DNA of 64,000 nucleotides from Clostridiales bacterium (lineage in GTDB: Bacteria; Bacillota; Clostridia; Oscillospirales; CAG-272), in the NCBI GenBank assembly GCA_003150035.1, contig QALR01000013.1, forward strand, positions 12,690 through 76,689, written 5' to 3'. Of this stretch, positions 55,005 to 63,921 are shown piece after piece. A program made the translations under genes and the position numbers. Each line of letters begins with the position of its first letter. Positions within the stretch are counted from its first letter, which is position 1. Below the pieces are notes generated by a model, which saw only the letters and a program-made list of their open reading frames with translations, ran no database searches and was not told the origin of the DNA.

Positions 55005-55082
55005 TGGGATATAGCCAAGTTGGTTAAGGCACAAGACTTTGACTCTTGCACTCCGCTGGTTCGAGTCCAGCTATCCCAGCCA
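55005..55082 (+). tRNA. tRNA-Gln (anticodon UUG), CCA encoded
   Basis: Hand fold: acceptor TGGGATA/TATCCCA, D arm GCC..GGC, anticodon stem CAAGA/TCTTG with loop CTTTGAC, T arm GCTGG-TTCGAGT-CCAGC, discriminator G, CCA. The variable region appears to be 6 nt. Confidence 0.85.
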
Positions 55083-55098
55083 TCATGAGTGTCTGATT

Positions 55099-55532
55099 TA
55101 GATGCAGGCACGAAAAAACGAGAAAAGCGGAGATTTCGAGAGATTTCTCCGCTTTTTTCGACTCTGAAGTTTTTCGAAATTTTGTAGATGCATTTCGGGC
55201 ATTTCGGGTCTGTAGACAGATTCGAACCGGCGAAATGCATTTTTTGATATAGATTCCCCACAGAAGCAAAACCGTGGACAGATTCGAACCGCCACACACT
55301 TTCCGAAGCCTTTCAAAAATCCTTCCCGTTCAAAATTTATTTACAAAGCCATAGATGCAACGACGTTTTGGACAGATTTGAACTACCACACTACTCCACC
55401 TGCCGAAAACAAGGTGAATCCAAAAAAGATGCAATTTCAGTTTGGATAGATTCGAACCACCACATTGCTTCAAAAGCAATGTAAAACGCAAATACAAAAT
55501 AGCTCCATCGTTTCAATGGACAGATCCGAACT
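55099..55532. repeat. array of five degenerate direct repeats (core TGGACAGATTCGAAC) with a companion TAGATGCA box
   Basis: Cores at 55213, 55275, 55369, 55443 and 55517. Boxes at 55099, 55185, 55352 and 55426. No credible coding potential. Confidence 0.75.
55123..55158 (+). terminator. rho-independent terminator after tRNA-Gln
   Basis: aaaagcggaga / tctccgctttt stem followed by a T-run. Confidence 0.7.
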
Positions 55533-55561
55533 ATCGAAAACCAAATACTGACCTGCTGAAG

Positions 55562-55596
55562 ACAAAGAAAAAGCCACGGATCATAAAACCCGTGGC
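55562..55596 (-). terminator. minus-strand terminator-like hairpin
   Basis: gccacgg / ccgtggc stem with a 10-nt loop, followed on the minus strand by tttttctttg. Confidence 0.4.
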
Positions 55597-55712
55597 AAAA
55601 TATTTATCTCCCCGACAAACAGTAACAGGTTTATCGATGAGATAATTATATCACAAAACCGAGAACAAGTAAACCTATATCCTGTAAACAATCGTAAATA
55701 TTCTTTCTACAT

Positions 55713-55749
55713 AGCCAAATGCTTATCAGCCAAGCGTTTGGCTTTTTTT
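55713..55749 (+). terminator. plus-strand rho-independent terminator or attenuator 22 nt upstream of the first island gene
   Basis: 10-bp stem agccaaatgc / gcgtttggct (one G-U) followed by T7. Confidence 0.7.
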
Positions 55750-55771
55750 ATTGCAGAAAGGATGATAACAG

Positions 55772-56644
55772 ATGAATGCAATTATCTCAAAGGGCGACAA
55801 AACTGCTCACGTTCAACTCCCCGTAGAACGAAAACAGTTGGCTGGCGCTCTCTCGTATTTGGGAGCAAATCATACTTCCGATTACGACCTCAAATATAAT
55901 GAGGAAAACAAAGACGGACTCAAGGTTTCGCTGGAATGCTTCGGTGTCGTAGAAAACGCAATTGCCAAGGCTCTTCCCGTTGGCTTCCGTTTTCACACGC
56001 TCAATGAGTCACTCACCTTGATGGGCAACCTCCCCTATCAGAACAGACGAGAGGTCGAAAACACAATCAAGGTTGATGGACTCGACTCCTATGAGCAACT
56101 CAACAGAATGCTGACCGAAGCCTATCCTCAGTCAGTTACAACCAAGTACTACTGTCCGCTGACCATTCAGGTTCATAGCCGAGATTGCTACGGTGACATC
56201 GATGAGGACGGCTATGAGGAAGATGCAGAGTTCGCAGCTCGGCACGAAGATCTGATTCGTCAGAAGATGTTGGAGTATAACGCCTATGATGAATGTAATA
56301 TGGCAGAATATTTCCACGGCAACAACGGTGTCTCCGAAAAGCTTCGTTCCGCTGATTGGGATTTTGAGCGCAGAAACGGTGAGCTCTACGGATGTATCAC
56401 CGTGCAGACCGCAGGCCCCCTCACAGAGGACGAGGAACAGGATCTCAAGGACTGGATCTCCGGTCAGAACTCGGACGGTCTCGGCGAAGGATTTGAGCAG
56501 AGAGAGATCTACCTTGACGGCACTCGTTACGGTGGCTTTATGTATGTGAGCCTTTGGAACTCCGGTGACGATTATTATATCGACAACCAAGACGAGTTCG
56601 AGGATCGCCTCATGTCGGACGGCATGACGATGGGTGGGATGTAA
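55772..56644 (+). CDS. island hypothetical protein, acidic, G-M-T-M-G-G-M tail
   Basis: 290-aa ORF. Its stop overlaps the next ATG (TAATG). Confidence 0.6.
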   Translation: MNAIISKGDKTAHVQLPVERKQLAGALSYLGANHTSDYDLKYNEENKDGLKVSLECFGVVENAIAKALPVGFRFHTLNESLTLMGNLPYQNRREVENTIKVDGLDSYEQLNRMLTEAYPQSVTTKYYCPLTIQVHSRDCYGDIDEDGYEEDAEFAARHEDLIRQKMLEYNAYDECNMAEYFHGNNGVSEKLRSADWDFERRNGELYGCITVQTAGPLTEDEEQDLKDWISGQNSDGLGEGFEQREIYLDGTRYGGFMYVSLWNSGDDYYIDNQDEFEDRLMSDGMTMGGM

Positions 56645-56988
56645 TGGCTCTTCTGTTCTCCCACGTTCGTGTTTCAACTCCCGATGGCAACGAAGCGGAA
56701 TTCCTCGTCAGCGGTATTCCCAGAGAATTTGATGACTTCGAATACTACACAGCATTCGAAGATTTCCTTGATGGCATTGAGGAAGACCCCGAAATCAGCG
56801 TACACGCTGAAGCCTATCTTTACGGCGAAGGTGAAACCTTCAAGGCATCCATTGAGGAAGTGGCATACTTCCATCTACGAATGCAAAATGATGAGAGATT
56901 CCTCTCTGGTCATTGCGACAATATCGAATCTGTTGACTTCACCTGCAACTACTCTCCCGATGAACTCTTCGGGATGGATTGGGGGTGA
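56644..56988 (+). CDS. island small, very acidic protein
   Basis: 114 aa. Hand count gives 27 Asp/Glu against 5 Lys/Arg. Confidence 0.6.
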   Translation: MALLFSHVRVSTPDGNEAEFLVSGIPREFDDFEYYTAFEDFLDGIEEDPEISVHAEAYLYGEGETFKASIEEVAYFHLRMQNDERFLSGHCDNIESVDFTCNYSPDELFGMDWG

Positions 56989-56990
56989 GT

Positions 56991-57329
56991 ATGACAGAAA
57001 ACTACTACGATGTACTCCTTGGCTTTTCGGACGAGCTGGATGATAAGAGTACAGAACTTTACAGTGTGAAAGAAGTGGCTGACTTCATTCATACTCACGG
57101 TGGCGGTTATATCACCGAAACAGATGGCACTCCACTACTTCAGATTGCATACGGTAATTATTTTGAAATTAGCGAAGAAAGTGATTTCTATAGCGATATC
57201 GAAGATAATACCTTACGCAATGAGGGCGAGGGTATGTGCTTCGTCTTCTGCAATGATATGCGTTACAAATACGCACTCATGGCAGAACTCCGCAAAGGCG
57301 AAGGCTTTGAGGACCGATATCAATGGTAA
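56991..57329 (+). CDS. island small acidic protein
   Basis: 112 aa from the ATG at 56991, which has GGGGGTGA upstream. 25 Asp/Glu against 8 Lys/Arg. Confidence 0.6.
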   Translation: MTENYYDVLLGFSDELDDKSTELYSVKEVADFIHTHGGGYITETDGTPLLQIAYGNYFEISEESDFYSDIEDNTLRNEGEGMCFVFCNDMRYKYALMAELRKGEGFEDRYQW

Positions 57330-57345
57330 GGAAAGAGGTGAACCA

Positions 57346-57606
57346 ATGAACTATTTTGATAAGAACGGCAACCAGATCAAGGCAGGTATGGATATCCGCA
57401 TGGCAGACGGCAGCTTCGAGCGAGTCTATGAAACCACCGACGCCTATGGAAATCCCGACCTTGGTATCAACGCATCCAACGAGGAATATCTCGAAAGACA
57501 TCCCTATGCCAGCCGAGAGTATTACTCCCTCTGCAATTTCGACATGAGCGAGGTTGAGATCGTCGATCAGATGGAACTGCCCGGAATGTCCATGGGTGGG
57601 ATGTGA
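57346..57606 (+). CDS. island small acidic protein, G-M-S-M-G-G-M tail
   Basis: 86 aa. AAGAGGTG lies upstream. 16 Asp/Glu against 6 Lys/Arg. Confidence 0.6.
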   Translation: MNYFDKNGNQIKAGMDIRMADGSFERVYETTDAYGNPDLGINASNEEYLERHPYASREYYSLCNFDMSEVEIVDQMELPGMSMGGM

Positions 57607-58358
57607 GAAAGCATATGGTAAATAGGAAAGAAACCAATCTCGACGGTGTCAAGGCAATGGCACGAACACTGCTTTACACCGACATCAATAAAACAGCCTA
57701 TTCGCCCATAGTCGTTCAGCATCCCTTCACCAACACAGGTATCACTATGGTGATGAGAAACGGCGAACCGCAATGCATTGACATTACAGCAGACAGCAAT
57801 GCTCTGCATGAATGGCGCAAGATGGTTTGTCAGCAGATCGATTCCTCCAAGAGCGCGTTTGAAATCTATATGATGACGAACAAGCCTTACGGAATGACGT
57901 TCCTCAAATACGCAGCTCATCACCTGTCCAAGAAGGATTTCTCACAGATCCTTGCGGATGCATGGATACGTTCAGAGAATCCGAATGACGATCCCAACCT
58001 GCCTCAAGCCAAGCTCCTATCGTTGTTTCAATCGGCAGAGCCACGGCATCTGATGTCCCAAGACGAACTGAATACGCTGAATGATCTTGACTCCACGGTA
58101 ACCGTTTATCGTGGCGTTACTTCATTTAACGCTAAAAACGTTAAGGCTCTCTCGTGGACATTGGACAGAAGCGTTGCCGAGTGGTTCGCAACACGGTTCG
58201 ATGAAGACGGCACGGTGTATCAGGCTCGGATCGATAAACCGCACATTTATGCCTATTTCGATGGCAGAAACGAGTCCGAAGTTATTGTGGATCCGAAATA
58301 TCTGATGGATATCACGGAATCCGAATCGATGGATAACTCCTTCGATATCACTATGTAA
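57603..58358 (+). CDS. island protein with C-terminal R-S-E ADP-ribosyltransferase-like motifs (candidate); start at GTG 57603 or ATG 57615
   Basis: VYRG ... LSWTLDRSVAEWFA ... NESEVIV occur in the order expected for YRG / STS / ExE motifs. Confidence 0.35.
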   Translation: MRKHMVNRKETNLDGVKAMARTLLYTDINKTAYSPIVVQHPFTNTGITMVMRNGEPQCIDITADSNALHEWRKMVCQQIDSSKSAFEIYMMTNKPYGMTFLKYAAHHLSKKDFSQILADAWIRSENPNDDPNLPQAKLLSLFQSAEPRHLMSQDELNTLNDLDSTVTVYRGVTSFNAKNVKALSWTLDRSVAEWFATRFDEDGTVYQARIDKPHIYAYFDGRNESEVIVDPKYLMDITESESMDNSFDITM

Positions 58359-58375
58359 GAAAGGAGATCAAGCTA

Positions 58376-58789
58376 TTGACCTTTTTTGAAAAAGAGCTTC
58401 ACAGGCTCTTTGACGATTCTGAATGTATTTCGGCTGATGCGGTTTTCGCTGGGAAGACAATGATTGCTCCTATCGGTGAAGATTTAAGAGCCAAGGTACA
58501 ATTCGTCTACACGAATACCCACGCAAAGTATGATGCCTTGCGGCTGACCATCATCAACCGCCACGAAGGTACGGTGGATAGCGAAACCTTCAAGTTCAAG
58601 GATATCATCGGTATGAAGGGCGGCCGTGAACCCCATATATGGGAAGACGGCCAAAGGGTTGACTGGTATATCTATCATCCAACCGCATCCGATTACAACT
58701 TCATTACCGATGTTGTTGAGGACTATATCTCCATGTACGCCGACCAAGCATATCGCTTTGACGGTGGAATGGCCATGGGAGGCATGTAA
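58376..58789 (+). CDS. island hypothetical protein, G-M-A-M-G-G-M tail
   Basis: 137 aa. TTG start 8 nt after AAAGGAG. Confidence 0.55.
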   Translation: MTFFEKELHRLFDDSECISADAVFAGKTMIAPIGEDLRAKVQFVYTNTHAKYDALRLTIINRHEGTVDSETFKFKDIIGMKGGREPHIWEDGQRVDWYIYHPTASDYNFITDVVEDYISMYADQAYRFDGGMAMGGM

Positions 58790-59553
58790 TGGAATATTCC
58801 TTCAGCCAATTGAGCAACATCGCCAAGAGCTTGCGAGAACGCTATCCCATAGGCACTCGCATCAAACTCATCAGTATGGGAGATGATCCACGTCCGATTC
58901 CGCCCGGAACCAAAGGCACGGTTGAGGGTATCGATGACATTGCTACCGTCTTCTGCAGGTTCGACAACGGCAGAAGCCTCGGTTTGGCATACGGAGAGGA
59001 TCATTACAGAGCCTTAACGCAAGCCGAGCTTCTCGAAGAAAAGTGCGCACGGAATTACGACAAGTATTACGAGGCCGTCCACCGAGATATCTTTGCGGAT
59101 GTAGACCTTGACCGCTTCGCCGAGGAAATCGAGAATGCGAATGACAACTACACCACCGAGATTTTGGGGCAGCTTCACGATAAGTTCGTCGAGATTTATG
59201 ACACCGACAGTGTCGATGGTCTCGTCGGATTCATCCAAGTACCTGCTATCGTCGAATCCCTTCAGACAGGTGACTACTATCCTGCCCTTGTAACACTCGA
59301 CTTGGACTCCTCCGGAGAACATTGGGGTACGTGCGTTATGACACCGACAGGCGTAATTGACCACGGTGTAACGGAAGAAACCGAAGCAGAAAAAGCCTTC
59401 ATGCAGAATCTTGTGCCGTACCGATACTGGTACACAGTAAATTGCGAGAGCGACATCCATGTGGATATGGCAGAGTGTCCCGAAGATATTTGGGATATCA
59501 TCTCCGCAGCCACAGGACAGACGTTTGAGCAGAACGGAGGTATGAGCCTCTGA
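58789..59553 (+). CDS. island protein with a DUF4314-like N-terminal domain
   Basis: The segment GTRIKLISMGDDPRPIPPGTKGTVEGIDDIATVFCRFDNGRSLGLAYGED matches my recollection of the DUF4314 signature. Confidence 0.5.
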   Translation: MEYSFSQLSNIAKSLRERYPIGTRIKLISMGDDPRPIPPGTKGTVEGIDDIATVFCRFDNGRSLGLAYGEDHYRALTQAELLEEKCARNYDKYYEAVHRDIFADVDLDRFAEEIENANDNYTTEILGQLHDKFVEIYDTDSVDGLVGFIQVPAIVESLQTGDYYPALVTLDLDSSGEHWGTCVMTPTGVIDHGVTEETEAEKAFMQNLVPYRYWYTVNCESDIHVDMAECPEDIWDIISAATGQTFEQNGGMSL

Positions 59554-59570
59554 GTAATCAAATCAAATAT

Positions 59571-60845
59571 TTGGACATGTTCGCCGGCATTGGTGGGTTC
59601 AGATCAGGACTCTCCAAGTTCGGCGATTTTTTTGTCCCCGTAGGATTTTGCGAGATAGATCCCTATGCTCGACGAGCCTACGAAGCAATCTATGACACGA
59701 AAGGAGAACTATTTTTTGAAGACGCAAGAAAGATCGTCCCCGAAGAACTGCCGGATATCGACCTTATTTGCGGCGGATTCCCTTGCCAAAGCTTTTCTAT
59801 TGCTGGAAAGCGAGGGGGCTTTGAAGACGCCAGAGGAACTTTGTTCTTTGAAATCGCTCGGATTGCCCGAGTTAAAAGACCTAAGTATCTGCTCCTTGAA
59901 AACGTTCCCGGACTCCTATCGCATGACAGCGGCAGGACGTTTGCGACCATCCTCAATGCGCTTTCAGAATTGGGGTACAATGTCGCATGGCAGGTGCTTA
60001 ACAGCGCGAATTTTGGAGTACCCCAAGCCCGAAAAAGAGTGTTTCTTATCTGCTATCTTGGAGAAGAATGCCCCGGAGAGATACTATCTTTCACCGACGC
60101 AAATCCAAAAACTATTGTTCAAAAGCTCGGTGGCAGACAAGGCGACCGAGTCTATGACCAAGACGGACTGAGTTGCACTCTGACGAGCAACGGCGGCGGT
60201 TTCGCTGGAAATACAGGTCTCTACTCCGTAGGACAGCTTCCCATCAAATCCTTGACCAAATCGGGCTATCAGATTGCCGAACCCGGCGACAGCATTGATT
60301 TGGCATATCCGAACTTGAACACCCGACGAGGTAGAGTCGGCAAACAGATCGCACACACGATCACGCCGAATATCACGCAGGGTGTTTATTTTATCGATAT
60401 GAACCCCGAACCCAAGATCACCGAGCTTGCCCGTTGCATTACTGCCCGACAGGATGCAGGTATCAGCAACCGTAAGGGTGAGCATTCCGGTGTCTTGGAA
60501 AAGGCAGAAGAAGGACCAAGAGCAGTCCTCACTCCCGATCGAGAAACCATTCGACAGCAAGGCAGACGAATGAAGGATCCCGAAGAACCCATGTTTACGC
60601 TCACCACGCAAGACCTGCACGGTGTAGCAGATAACGACAAGATCCGAAAGCTCATGCCCATTGAGTGCTGGCGATTGCAAGGATTCACGGACGAGCAATT
60701 CCACAAAGCACAATCCGCAGGTCTCTCCGATGCAAGACTCTACAAGATGGCAGGTAATGCGGTAAGCGTACCTGTTATCACTGCCCTCGGTGAGATTATT
60801 AAGCGAGTCCACGAGAACTCGCAGAAGGAGGCCGATAATGGCTAA
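59571..60845 (+). CDS. DNA (cytosine-5)-methyltransferase, orphan (true start probably upstream, e.g. CTG 59550)
   Basis: Motifs FAGIGG (I), GGFPCQSFS (IV), ENV (VI), QARKRV (VIII) and GNAVSVPV (X). Confidence 0.88.
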   Translation: MDMFAGIGGFRSGLSKFGDFFVPVGFCEIDPYARRAYEAIYDTKGELFFEDARKIVPEELPDIDLICGGFPCQSFSIAGKRGGFEDARGTLFFEIARIARVKRPKYLLLENVPGLLSHDSGRTFATILNALSELGYNVAWQVLNSANFGVPQARKRVFLICYLGEECPGEILSFTDANPKTIVQKLGGRQGDRVYDQDGLSCTLTSNGGGFAGNTGLYSVGQLPIKSLTKSGYQIAEPGDSIDLAYPNLNTRRGRVGKQIAHTITPNITQGVYFIDMNPEPKITELARCITARQDAGISNRKGEHSGVLEKAEEGPRAVLTPDRETIRQQGRRMKDPEEPMFTLTTQDLHGVADNDKIRKLMPIECWRLQGFTDEQFHKAQSAGLSDARLYKMAGNAVSVPVITALGEIIKRVHENSQKEADNG

Positions 60846-61647
60846 TAATGTCACAAACAAGTTGAGATTCGATAAATGCTCCAAGGAACGGTGTCGTGAA
60901 ATACTCGAAGCGATTCAGATTGATAGAATCGGCCTTGGTTCAATCGATTTCAACAAAATCATTCCCGAGCCTTATTTTCCGTCAGATCAAGATTGTATCA
61001 ATTGGCGAATCAAGAATTGGGATACAAAATGGGAAGCTTACGGTTACCGTGACGGAATTCAGTATGATGAGGACAAGAATGAAATTAGCTTCCTTACTGC
61101 AAACAGATCGGCAAGAAAAATCATTATTGCACTCTCCCGACAATATCCCGATGTTTTATTCGAACTGCGATACGCTGACGAGAATTTCGGTTACAACGTG
61201 GGAGAAATCAGCATTATGGCAGGTGAAGACTTCGATGGAAGAATCCCGAAGGATAACACCTATGAAGCACAGGAGCTTGCCGCAGATGTAATGGGCAAGA
61301 AACTCGCCTTCGATATCGAATCCGCTTCGGGTTACGTTCGCAAGATCGATGCGAATCTGTACGAATACTGTGAAGGTGTTCACGTCTCGCAATCATTCCA
61401 ATGTGATCAGTCACTCGGACATCCCGTAGTCCTATGCTATGACTTTGACAACAGCAAGGTGTGGCTTGAAATGTATCCTCTGCTTGATGAAGATGACGAT
61501 ATGTATGAAGATATCAAGAACAGCATTCAAGCATGGGGCATCCATCCCTGTGAATCATGGGATGACTTCAACAGCTACGTTCAATGCCTTGGTGAGGATG
61601 CCATGGAAGCAGCCTACTACGATGAAGGGGGGATGACAATGTGCTGA
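60838..61647 (+). CDS. Api92/DUF1281-like ferredoxin-fold protein
   Basis: N-terminus MANNVTNKLRF and FNKIIPEP ... NWDTKWEA motifs. GAAGGAGG lies upstream. Overlaps the C5 methyltransferase gene by 8 nt. Confidence 0.5.
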   Translation: MANNVTNKLRFDKCSKERCREILEAIQIDRIGLGSIDFNKIIPEPYFPSDQDCINWRIKNWDTKWEAYGYRDGIQYDEDKNEISFLTANRSARKIIIALSRQYPDVLFELRYADENFGYNVGEISIMAGEDFDGRIPKDNTYEAQELAADVMGKKLAFDIESASGYVRKIDANLYEYCEGVHVSQSFQCDQSLGHPVVLCYDFDNSKVWLEMYPLLDEDDDMYEDIKNSIQAWGIHPCESWDDFNSYVQCLGEDAMEAAYYDEGGMTMC

Positions 61648-61724
61648 CCTTCTTTATCGGTCTGTTTGTTGGCGGCATCGTGGGAGTAGTCACGATGTGC
61701 CTCTTTCAGATCAACCGCAAATAA
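61641..61724 (+). CDS. candidate 27-aa hydrophobic micro-protein (not in the ORF track)
   Basis: GTG start 8 nt after GGGGGG. Translation MLTFFIGLFVGGIVGVVTMCLFQINRK gives one TM helix with a basic C-terminus. Confidence 0.35.
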   Translation: MLTFFIGLFVGGIVGVVTMCLFQINRK

Positions 61725-61805
61725 CAAATAAACAATAAGGTCGTTTTGCAAAAGAAAAGCAAGACGGCCTTTTCTTTTTGCAATTCGGTCTTGGAAAGGA
61801 TCCGA

Positions 61806-62678
61806 ATGAACAGTTTTATGTCGTGGGTAGGCGGCAAAAAAGCCTTGCGAGATGCAATCGTAACAAGGCTACCAAACTCCTGCGACAGATACGTTGAAGT
61901 GTTCGGCGGTGGCGGTTGGGTGCTCTTTCATAAGACACCCGGCAAATTCGAAGTATACAACGACTTCAACCCCAATCTTGCAAACCTGTACAGGTGTGTG
62001 AGAGATCATCCCGACGAGCTCTGCGAAGAACTCCGATACTCTCTGAACTCAAGGACAGACTTTGAGCATATCCGAGAGGTACTCAAAAGCAAGACCGCTA
62101 TCCCCGACATCAAACGTGCCGCCTACTTCTATCAGATCATCCGAGAAAGCTACGCATCAGGACTCGACTCCTTCGGGGCGCAACCCCACAATATGTGGCG
62201 TAACTTTCCGCTGATCACTGAAGCATCCCGACGCTTGCAAAGCGTTGTGATAGAAAACAAGGACTTCGAAAAGCTCATTTCGCAGTATGACCGTCCCAAC
62301 ACCATCTTCTACCTCGATCCTCCTTACTATGAAACCGAGGACTATTACGAGGATGTAGGCTTCGGACGAGCCGACCACGAAAGGCTTTGCAATGCCTTAA
62401 TGAAGATCAAAGGCAAATTCCTTCTCTCGTACAATGACTGCCCCGAAATTCGGGAGCTGTACTCCAAAGAAGGAATCATGATCGAGTCCACCACACGCAT
62501 CTCGAATATTGCCCAACGGTTTGATGCCGGAAAGCAATATCCCGAATTGCTTATTTCCAACTATGACACCCATGAGGAAGGAATCCTCTCAAGACAACTC
62601 ACACTCTTCGACGATTTCGAAGAATCAGAAAAAATATTAAAGGAGCACAAGATTATATGGAAATCAAATGTAAAATAA
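61806..62678 (+). CDS. D12-class N6-adenine DNA methyltransferase, orphan
   Basis: SWVGGKKAL, FGGGG and DPPYY motifs. The start was set at MNSFMSW. Confidence 0.85.
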   Translation: MNSFMSWVGGKKALRDAIVTRLPNSCDRYVEVFGGGGWVLFHKTPGKFEVYNDFNPNLANLYRCVRDHPDELCEELRYSLNSRTDFEHIREVLKSKTAIPDIKRAAYFYQIIRESYASGLDSFGAQPHNMWRNFPLITEASRRLQSVVIENKDFEKLISQYDRPNTIFYLDPPYYETEDYYEDVGFGRADHERLCNALMKIKGKFLLSYNDCPEIRELYSKEGIMIESTTRISNIAQRFDAGKQYPELLISNYDTHEEGILSRQLTLFDDFEESEKILKEHKIIWKSNVK

Positions 62679-62899
62679 CTTTTTCTCTCCCCAAAGACCT
62701 CATGGAGGCTCTTGACATCAACGATGACACTCCTGTCATCGCTTCCATCTCGGATGGTCGGATCACGGTAGAAATCGTCGATGACGAGGATGAGTACACC
62801 GAGGATGACCTCTACGACGAGGACGATGGCGACTGTGAGGACGGTTGTGAGCATTGCGAATACTTCTGCCCCCACTGTGGCAAGTGTGTTCTCAACTGA
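62657..62899 (+). CDS. AbrB/SpoVT-fold-like protein with a poly-acidic linker and a six-Cys cluster
   Basis: N-terminus ITFSLPKDLMEALDINDDTPVIASISDGRITVEIV, then DDEDEYTEDDLYDEDDGD, then C-x3-C-x2-C-x3-C-x2-C-x2-C. Confidence 0.5.
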   Translation: MEIKCKITFSLPKDLMEALDINDDTPVIASISDGRITVEIVDDEDEYTEDDLYDEDDGDCEDGCEHCEYFCPHCGKCVLN

Positions 62900-62914
62900 C
62901 CAGAGGTGACCGCC

Positions 62915-63196
62915 ATGAACAAGATCTACAGACTCATCGGCAAAGAAGGCCGAACCACCATTCCTTTCGACATTCGTCTCAAGATGCGCATCGGCTACAA
63001 CAGCCTCCTCTCCTATGAGATGAAGGACGAAAACACCATCATCCTCCGCCGTGAGAAGGTCTGCGACCACTGCAGCGACCACGGTGTCAAGGAAGGTTCT
63101 ATCCTTGACGTGGTCAACAGCCTCACCGAAACCGAGCAGAAGGCTCTCCACAGATACCTCTCCATCAAGCTCTCCACGGGCAAGGAGCATCGATAA
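62915..63196 (+). CDS. AbrB/SpoVT-fold DNA-binding protein
   Basis: GRTTIPFDIRLKMRIGYNSLLSYEMKDENTIILR. AGAGGTGA lies upstream. Confidence 0.55.
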   Translation: MNKIYRLIGKEGRTTIPFDIRLKMRIGYNSLLSYEMKDENTIILRREKVCDHCSDHGVKEGSILDVVNSLTETEQKALHRYLSIKLSTGKEHR

Positions 63197-63921
63197 TGCC
63201 TGTACCGTTATATCGCTACTCCTTCCGTGAAGCCAAGGAGCACGACGAAATACAGGAATGGAAGCAGTCCCATGCGGAAAACATCCGCTGCCGAGATGCA
63301 ATCGACAAGATGGTATCGGAACGGTACAGCAACAATATCATGCCGAACAACATCATCAAGGATGCATGTGCCGAGTTTGGTATTGACCGTGTAGGATGGG
63401 TGTTAGCCACAACCGTCAGCGAAAACAGCAACGATGGCAGATACCGACCGGATACCCGTCGTTGGTCGATGCAAGCCTTCTATATTCCCAACGACTCACG
63501 CAATCATGAAATCGAGCTTCGAACTCACCCCGAACTGGTCAACGGCATGGTTGGACAGTACAGAAAATACCTGTCCGAGGAACTCGGAATCCTGTCCAAA
63601 GAAGCATGCCTTCCCAACAGCAACGGTGAGGACTATACCGAAAAGCTTCTCATCTTGCACACAGACGCTCTTGCGGAAGATTACAAGAAAGGCGAATATC
63701 AATACTTTTATGCCAACGGTGGAAACGGTTGCCGTCCCACCTCTCTTGGTCGCAAGATCTTCGGCTTCTTCCTTTCCGATGGCGAGAAAACACAGTTCGT
63801 CCGTGGAGATTTCATCGGCATTGCAGATCCCGAACAGGTTCCCGATTGGGTGAACGAAAACCTTGAAAAATACTTGCACGGACAGGAAAATACAGAAGAC
63901 GGAGGTATGAAACTCGAATGA
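63196..63921 (+). CDS. DUF3849-domain protein
   Basis: The segments YRYSFREAKEHDEIQEWKQSHAENIRCRDAI ... RVGWVLATTV ... THPELVNG fit my recollection of the DUF3849 pattern. Confidence 0.65.
   Translation: MPVPLYRYSFREAKEHDEIQEWKQSHAENIRCRDAIDKMVSERYSNNIMPNNIIKDACAEFGIDRVGWVLATTVSENSNDGRYRPDTRRWSMQAFYIPNDSRNHEIELRTHPELVNGMVGQYRKYLSEELGILSKEACLPNSNGEDYTEKLLILHTDALAEDYKKGEYQYFYANGGNGCRPTSLGRKIFGFFLSDGEKTQFVRGDFIGIADPEQVPDWVNENLEKYLHGQENTEDGGMKLE

Follow-up and report, generated by a model that had tools for sequence, protein, structure and literature searches.

Seven of the 14 complete genes in a putative mobile-element island on contig QALR01000013.1 of a Clostridiales bacterium end in a short glycine- and methionine-rich peptide, which was also found at the extreme C-terminus of at least ten unrelated protein families in related loci, among them the MobL relaxases of small mobilizable elements. 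The window analysed here is the full 64-kb stretch of this contig, and the island with the tailed genes occupies 55.7-64 kb of it. The core of the motif is M-G-G-[M/L/I] followed by 0-3 residues, and a tail consists of one or two GG-M-x-hydrophobic (GG-M-x-M) units. We propose, with a probability of about one half, that the Gly/Met tail may be a recognition or translocation signal for a type IV secretion system (T4SS) or a VirD4-like coupling protein, a reading that is favoured because relaxases carry the tail. In the proposed mechanism, accessory proteins (anti-restriction and establishment-type) encoded by integrative conjugative elements in gut Clostridia would bear the tail as a C-terminal address tag. 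The element's coupling protein or T4SS would read the tag and send the tagged proteins into the recipient together with the DNA; small mobilizable elements, relying on such conjugative elements, would have the same tag on their MobL relaxases; and the Gly-Gly codons would often be recruited as the GGAGG Shine-Dalgarno (SD) sequence of a tightly coupled next gene, as a secondary dual coding.

The choice of protein substrates by Gram-positive conjugation systems is largely unsettled, and a 2025 review describes the evidence on substrate recognition in Gram-positive T4SSs as limited (PMC12857230). A sequence-recognisable tag on relaxases and anti-restriction proteins would make this choice directly testable. 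If the proposal is true, the exported effector repertoire of Gram-positive conjugation and the co-transferred anti-defence arsenal of gut mobile elements could be predicted from sequence, and the tail would explain which mobilizable elements use which helper.

Gly/Met tails in the island and in related loci

All seven C-terminal tails located by the original prediction for this stretch close real genes on the + strand. They are listed below together with two methyltransferase genes that served as in-island controls (aa, amino acids).

55772-56644, + strand: gene 1, 290 aa, no Pfam family, ends LMSDGMTMGGM (tail codons 56621-56641; tail stretch quoted as 56621-56644)
56644-56988, + strand: gene 2, 114 aa, ends ELFGMDWG (tail stretch 56971-56988)
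57346-57606, + strand: gene 4, 86 aa, ends ELPGMSMGGM (tail stretch 57583-57606); next start ATG 57615
58376-58789, + strand: gene 6, 137 aa, ends FDGGMAMGGM (tail stretch 58766-58789)
58789-59553, + strand: gene 7, DUF4314 protein, 254 aa (Pfam DUF4314, E 1.9e-27), ends FEQNGGMSL (tail 59533-59553)
59577-60845, + strand: Dcm-type cytosine methyltransferase without Gly/Met tail, control
60838-61647, + strand: gene 9, DUF1281_C protein (Pfam), 269 aa, ends YYDEGGMTMC (tail 61624-61647)
61806-62678, + strand: Dam-type (MethyltransfD12) methyltransferase without tail, control
63196-63921, + strand: gene 13, DUF3849 protein, 241 aa (Pfam DUF3849, E 2.3e-33), ends TEDGGMKLE (tail 63895-63921)

The tails are confined to the island. 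When the window's 509 stop-to-stop open reading frames (ORFs) of 60 codons or more were scanned for GGM, MGG or GM.M within the last 8 residues, six of the listed tails fitted the pattern, all of them at 55.7-64 kb, and the sole other match was a loose ALMGG at 1847; the GMDWG end of gene 2 falls outside this pattern and was checked directly. The degenerate 24-mer GGNATGNNNATGGGNGGNATGTRA had exactly three matches in the window and none in 100 dinucleotide-preserving shuffles. For GGNGGNATG, 16 matches were found in the window, 7 of them within the 8.3-kb island, at an expectation of ~7.4 for the whole window.

Three near-identical 24-mers, described by the original prediction as a recurrent cassette, are indeed present; their identity, however, is wholly codon-determined (ATG for Met, GGN for Gly) and does not amount to a DNA cassette. 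The three copies differ at the Gly wobble sites (c/a/a, t/t/a, g/g/c), in the x codon (acg/tcc/gcc) and in the stop codon, and an alignment of 140 nucleotides (nt) around each copy confined the similarity essentially to the cassette itself, at the ATG and GG positions. As the identity is only that dictated by the codons, with variable wobble sites and unrelated flanks, what is conserved is the peptide G-M-x-M-G-G-M and not the DNA.

The shorter tails were compared with those of homologous proteins. The DUF3849 BLAST family in other loci ends GITMGGM, TMGGMNMK, GGINLN, GGMTLS or GGMKLE at the same position, and the weaker tails of the window are the same motif as the GMxMGGM tails. The tail of gene 7 is a single GG-M-x-hydrophobic unit and is kept in 13 loci, and that of gene 2 is a half unit (G-M-x-hydrophobic), whose probable homologs, identified solely from length and C-terminal context, terminate in ELFGMEMK or ELFGMEMN. 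A homolog of gene 4 at 76% identity differs in the linker and retains an ELTMGGM end, and the tail is present in 20/20 members of the gene 6 family in the fetched loci.

Scanning of metagenome contigs with the degenerate 24-mer gave at least 120 loci, mostly from the human gut, which were thus picked by the motif and include many related elements. The same scan of IMG/VR yielded only 4 matches, as expected by chance; the tail is thus no phage feature. Among the matches listed from both sources, 111/129 terminate ORFs of at least 60 codons, and the tail-trimmed ORFs from the matches listed fall into ~20 BLAST-unrelated clusters, a minority of which are non-element or spurious (a GroEL fragment, a PilT-like protein and low-complexity ORFs). 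Pfam names among the tailed proteins include ArdA anti-restriction, MobL with Sel1 repeats, pentapeptide-repeat and SpoVG, and there was a weak, below-cutoff RepB-like match that we read as ribbon-helix-helix (RHH). The tailed families, at least 10 of them unrelated, are the gene-1-like, DUF4314, ArdA-like, 233-aa, gene-6-like, DUF3849, DUF1281_C, RHH, SpoVG, pentapeptide-repeat and MobL families. The linker before the tail is usually acidic or polar, for example EDEGMDMGGM or DEEETEGFGMSMGGM. The core tail is absent from both methyltransferases (0/24 family members for the Dcm type and 0/24 for the Dam type), gene 5, the Tad-like pilus proteins, the coupling protein, the integrases and the excisionases.

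The position of the motif within proteins is equally restricted. The fetched loci (~1 Mb of related sequence) include 1231 genes in whose selection the pattern played no part; in these, MGG[MLI] lies 0-3 residues from the C-terminus 61 times and only twice internally in 267,434 positions (expectation ~0.01 per offset). GM.MGGM was found 107 times at the terminus versus 5 times internally.

The gene-1 family shows how deep this conservation reaches. The 120 close homologs of gene 1 retain GMTMGGM, while the three residues preceding it vary between MSD and ANQ. After clustering of the family at 50% identity, the gene-1 domain is the last one in 84 representatives; an MGG[MLI] core is present in 34 of these and a unit-like tail in a further 21 (55/84), and most others have Met-rich degenerate ends. 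Across 38 aligned homologs at 27-48% identity, conservation of the final M-G-G-M columns is 0.58, 0.79, 0.76 and 0.55, compared with 0.16-0.45 in the linker and a protein mean of 0.46. The AlphaFold2 (AF2) model of gene 1 has a mean predicted local distance difference test score (pLDDT) of 87.5 and shows the tail as disordered: only residues 285-290, which form the tail after a helix at 273-284, fall below 50. Comparison of the model with the PDB gave no significant match (all E >0.01, TM-scores ~0.1). No Gly/Met motif lies at the domain junction in the 23 representatives with an internal gene-1 domain, and a few longer gene-1-domain proteins bear GGMGGM at their own far end; since fused proteins lack a junction motif and have the tail at the far end only, there is one tail per polypeptide, at its end. 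Three gene-1 homologs of 385 aa (P0016, P0017 and P0023) are fused C-terminally to an IS200-type Y1 transposase of ~95 aa (PF01797) and end DPFMGSK, and in these proteins an insertion at the gene end appears to have replaced the tail.

MobL relaxases and a second class of tails

The relaxase passes through the T4SS during conjugation. The query of the relaxase search was the N-terminal catalytic domain alone, taken from a tailed MobL relaxase, so the C-terminus played no part in choosing the matches. Each of the 110 full-length matches (110/110) closes with a Gly/Met tail, of which 90 are GGMVMGGM or close variants, 11 GMTMKGW, 7 WGGMTMK and 2 GGMTMGW. Synonymous sites in these tails vary (GGA/GGC, GTC/GTT, GGC/GGT, GGG/GGA) with the amino acids unchanged, the Gly codons in this MobL clade are not SD-like, and no gene follows closely. 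The host elements are small, integrative and mobilizable; besides the relaxase they carry tyrosine integrases, an excisionase-like and a Rep-like gene and an accessory gene of 139 aa. They have neither a coupling protein nor a T4SS, and the relaxase is their only tailed protein. One locus holds two such elements:

L149:9162-17228: tandem mobilizable elements, each with a MobL-Sel1 relaxase, the first ending GGMVMGGM and the second PQGYTMQFH

The PQGYTMQFH end of the second relaxase is a degenerate tail without Gly-Gly.

A second tail was found in another family of elements. It consists of a basic run followed by D/G-x-E-E-L/H, as in KSKDEEL, KDESEL, HSGEEH and KKSGPEL, and some distant gene-1 homologs end KKSGPEL or KSKDEEL. 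The transfer module of locus L144 (1-15733) includes Maff2, TrbL_2, PrgI and DUF3801, and its coupling protein is only ~27% identical. In this locus the basic tail closes seven unrelated proteins (two ArdA-like, a 422-aa protein, LPD34, DUF3801, SpoVG and a 723-aa gene-1-like protein), and it is lacking from the methyltransferases, the coupling protein, Maff2, TrbL_2 and PrgI. It is also present on SpoVG and the gene-1-like protein in L145 and L146, and on the gene-1-like protein only in L143 and L147. No homologs of Maff2, TrbL_2 or PrgI were found in the Gly/Met loci, which mostly sample accessory regions. An element-specific address tag would predict that a protein family changes its tail from one element family to another, as is seen here. 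Tentatively, and with somewhat less confidence than for the signal itself, we suggest that such tails could be interchangeable address codes of monoderm conjugative elements, the Gly/Met tail marking the proteins (relaxases, anti-restriction proteins and DNA mimics) delivered to recipients by a large family of gut-Clostridia elements and the basic K-D-x-E-E-L/H tail those delivered by another, and that mobilizable relaxases wear the code of their helper. A third variant may be represented by the following group:

L151:13956-17040: three consecutive small proteins, downstream of the adhesin, ending RKGGER, RSGGER and KDGKER

These small proteins are followed by a 2263-aa polyvalent protein (MutS_I, N6_Mtase, Eco57I).

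Interpretation and alternative explanations

The C-terminal translocation signals of Gram-negative T4SSs include the Arg-rich tail of Agrobacterium VirB/D4 substrates and, in Legionella Dot/Icm effectors, a Glu-rich E-block with a hydrophobic C-terminus. These signals are the closest known kind of system, and the closest in sequence is the (GGM)n tail of GroEL. Like the Gly/Met tail, the Gram-negative signals are short, unstructured and extreme C-terminal, are found on unrelated travelling proteins and off the machine, and often combine an acidic stretch with a hydrophobic end; the basic tail of L144 resembles the positively charged VirB/D4 type. Unlike them, the tail described here is of Gly/Met composition, is known from sequence alone, belongs to monoderm Clostridia hosts, and has anti-restriction/establishment proteins and MobL relaxases as its cargo. 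To our knowledge, a Gly/Met composition is not known for any T4SS signal.

Transfer of proteins during conjugation has precedents: PsiB, SSB and ParB of the F plasmid are transferred as proteins (PMC8406263), and polyvalent proteins are predicted to be delivered with the DNA (PMC5512222). As far as the available text of these two sources goes, the cargo is of the same anti-restriction and establishment class, with ArdA, YodL and SpoVG-type neighbours; no sequence tag was found in that text, whereas here a discrete tag is present on stand-alone, single-domain proteins. Literature searches for GGM/MGGM tails returned GroEL/Hsp60 work only, and no such tail, either Gly/Met or basic, was described in the papers searched on MobL, Tad, polyvalent proteins and Gram-positive translocation signals.

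The distribution of the tail resembles that of a T4SS signal. It is short, unstructured, extreme C-terminal and common to unrelated proteins, and it is found on the relaxase, a T4SS substrate, with the core tail off the machinery, although it is not universal among MobL proteins. The suggestion in the original prediction of a shared C-terminal signal for T4SS-mediated co-transfer is thus favoured by the comparative evidence, the relaxases being tailed, and we infer it at the strength given above.

Several observations weigh against this reading. The tail counts are not independent events, because it was the motif that picked the loci, many of which are related elements. The tail is not universal, because MobL relaxases without it exist in L078, in L021, in the second element of L149 and on plasmid OY725859. 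The last, the one hit of a search for plasmid-borne tailed relaxases, is a Subdoligranulum relaxase at 38% identity with its own coupling protein; in a small and partly biased sample, three tail-less relaxases (those of L078, L021 and OY725859) adjoin their own coupling protein. The methyltransferases lack the tail, though they might plausibly act early in the recipient. The conjugative nature of the window's element is inferred from its relatives, the window stopping short of the transfer genes; flank walking reached the Tad-like pilus, the adhesin and a few genes further, and did not reach T4SS, coupling-protein or relaxase genes. Finally, an SD sequence alone can yield a GG-M-like ending, as shown by a TadC-like machinery protein that ends SLGGMFG where an SD-coupled gene follows.

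Docking to some other common partner, such as a hub or chaperone of the element, the host chaperonin, the membrane, or Cu(I) via the Met motifs, is the strongest alternative, and we consider it unlikely. The C-terminal tip of SSB is acidic plus hydrophobic, and the Gly/Met tail, being conserved, disordered, C-terminal and often preceded by an acidic linker, resembles it in form. Docking would also suit the likeness to the GroEL/Hsp60 (GGM)n tail, which, in the part of PMC12571646 that was available, is likewise a disordered, extreme C-terminal run of GGM/MGGM repeats. The carriers here, unlike GroEL, are not chaperonins (ArdA, MobL, SpoVG, DUF4314, DUF3849 and others), their tails are shorter, with 1-2 units and usually an x between the Met residues (G-M-x-M), and the GroEL tail acts inside the folding chamber. 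Moreover, no candidate partner gene was found, the relaxase, the sole tailed class of known fate, is a T4SS substrate, and the tail is present on relaxases of elements that lack machinery of their own.

A degron or protease tag, which would keep establishment proteins and the relaxase short-lived, was also raised by the original prediction and is disfavoured as still less probable. Bacterial degrons are usually short, disordered, hydrophobic C-terminal tags (e.g. those of ssrA-tagged ClpXP substrates), a form that the disordered tail matches, and the tailed proteins are needed only transiently. However, the GroEL fragment from the metagenome scan ends GMGAGMGMGGM, the same pattern, and GroEL is abundant and stable; none of the host chromosomal ORFs in the window's remaining 55 kb carries the tail. 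This explanation also leaves unaccounted for the different tail on the same protein families in another element family and, in mobilizable elements, the tagging of no protein but the relaxase.

That the tail is solely a by-product of translation signals, with an in-frame GGAGG giving Gly-Gly and no selection on the peptide, is very improbable, although the overlay itself is real. Among tails with a gene start within 25 nt in related loci, 66/82 contain GGAGG. As in other 3'-embedded SD systems (TAATG/ATGA overlaps), GGAGG written as Gly-Gly lies 6-12 nt before an overlapping start at several junctions. In the window, the distances from Gly-Gly to the next start are 6, 6, 15, 6, 36, 9 and 12 nt for genes 1, 2, 4, 6, 7, 9 and 13, respectively, and 3-5 of the 7 junctions have a plausible SD spacing (6-12 nt), where coupling would call for a GGAGG-like element 5-10 nt before the start. 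The end of gene 2 contains GGGGGTGA 6 nt upstream of the next ATG at 56991, the GGAGGC of gene 6 doubles as the SD of the overlapping ATG at 58789 (TAATG), and the end of gene 9 contains GGGGGG 9 nt upstream of the GTG at 61641. The embedded ribosome-binding site claimed by the original prediction is partly supported, but it is impossible at 57606 (GGTGG) and 59553 because of the spacings of 15 and 36 nt, and poor at 56644 (GGTGG); two window junctions besides 57606 and 59553 have GGTGG only, and other island junctions have ordinary intergenic SDs. The misfit at 57606 had been noticed before and is borne out, as is the earlier remark that an SD does not explain the Met codons. In-frame GGAGG at gene ends is followed by Met in 51/84 cases and preceded by Met in 40/84, against a Met background of 2.4%, and it is found 84 times in frame 0 versus 44 and 15 times in the other two frames.

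Unlike embedded SD systems, in which the constraint would be limited to the SD nucleotides and lost without a downstream gene, the constraint here reaches the flanking Met codons and persists with non-SD codons where no gene follows. Tails written with GGC or GGT occur in MobL relaxases, in a 381-aa ArdA-like protein and in the RHH protein, with the next gene ~55-420 nt away; because a simple gene caller misses short downstream genes and makes the "uncoupled" class noisy, only families checked by eye were relied on. The motif persists, in addition, at 27-48% identity. The by-product explanation was rejected on the Met enrichment and on these GGC/GGT tails. Since the flanking Met is enriched and the tail is kept with non-SD codons far from the next gene, selection acts on the peptide, the SD being a secondary overlay in the glycine codons where a coupled gene follows. 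Such dual coding is possible because Gly-Gly can be written GGAGG, which accounts for the wobble bias and not for the motif; it would be a clean case of six bases serving both a peptide signal and the ribosome-binding site of the following gene. One case resembles a pure SD by-product:

L136:16775-17653: TadC-like membrane protein, 292 aa, ends SLGGMFG, with GGAGGT before the overlapping TAATG start

The least credible explanation treats the 24-mer as a DNA cassette, either a site of recombination or module shuffling or, in polyvalent proteins, a linker or protease site: the same domains do occur alone and fused in polyvalent proteins (PMC5512222, PMC12084326) and ATGTAATGG junctions could fuse genes through a single change, but the nucleotide identity does not extend beyond the bases dictated by the peptide, the flanks are unrelated and the wobble sites variable, and the motif is absent between domains in 23/23 representatives, the fused proteins being tailed at the far end only. 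Both forms were rejected, and with them the shuffling junction offered by the original prediction.

Context of the island and further features

The island starts just downstream of a tRNA gene, which is therefore the likely integration site of the element:

55005-55082, + strand: tRNA-Gln (UUG), detected by ARAGORN and Rfam tRNA (63 bits)

Approximately 690 nt of non-coding sequence (55083-55771) separate this gene from the first island gene, and no integrase was found at the tRNA-Gln end of the island within the window. A small MazE-like protein, an AbrB-like protein and the Dcm- and Dam-type methyltransferases are interspersed among the tailed genes. Scans of the island proteins against Pfam, NCBIfam and PHROGs gave no functional name for genes 1-6. 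Two further genes of the island are as follows:

57615-58358: gene 5, 247 aa, no tail, PHROG 4776 of unknown function (E 1e-34)
61641-61724: small hydrophobic ORF, GTG start, 27 aa, MLTFFIGLFVGGIVGVVTMCLFQINRK, overlapping the end of the DUF1281_C gene

Gene 5 is the sole island gene of unknown function with a clear match to a phage-protein family. The small ORF is absent from the public gene calls seen in L136. No recognisable SD precedes the start of the Dcm-type gene (ATG 59577 or TTG 59571); the closest GGAGG is 36 nt upstream, within the DUF4314 gene.

The domains of the island and its relatives are those described for conjugative elements of Bacillota (PMC5512222, PMC12084326), and genome matches were found in Ruminococcus, Oscillospiraceae and other Clostridia metagenome-assembled genomes (MAGs). 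Contigs with an identical DUF3849 protein run on into YodL/DUF3846, SpoVG and Flp-like pilins (DUF6133), and continue with a prepilin peptidase, a Tad-like ATPase and platform proteins, and a large adhesin. The complete pilus locus encodes DUF6133 pilins, an A24 prepilin peptidase, RcpC/CpaB-like and TadZ-like proteins, a T2SSE ATPase, TadB/C-like proteins and DUF4320, and is followed by an adhesin of 800-1300 aa with MucBP or Flg_new:

L136:11498-19132 (continuation of the window's element): complete Tad/Flp-like pilus locus, found also in L151 and L152

Coupling-protein genes adjoin tailed genes in L078 and L059, and a remnant of one is retained in a decayed copy:

L009:12201-13457, on the Oscillospiraceae MAG chromosome CP091718: decayed element copy, a single ORF that joins the N-terminal part of DUF1281_C to the C-terminal half of a VirD4-like coupling protein

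This coupling-protein half is 55-59% identical to the coupling proteins of L059, L021 and L078.

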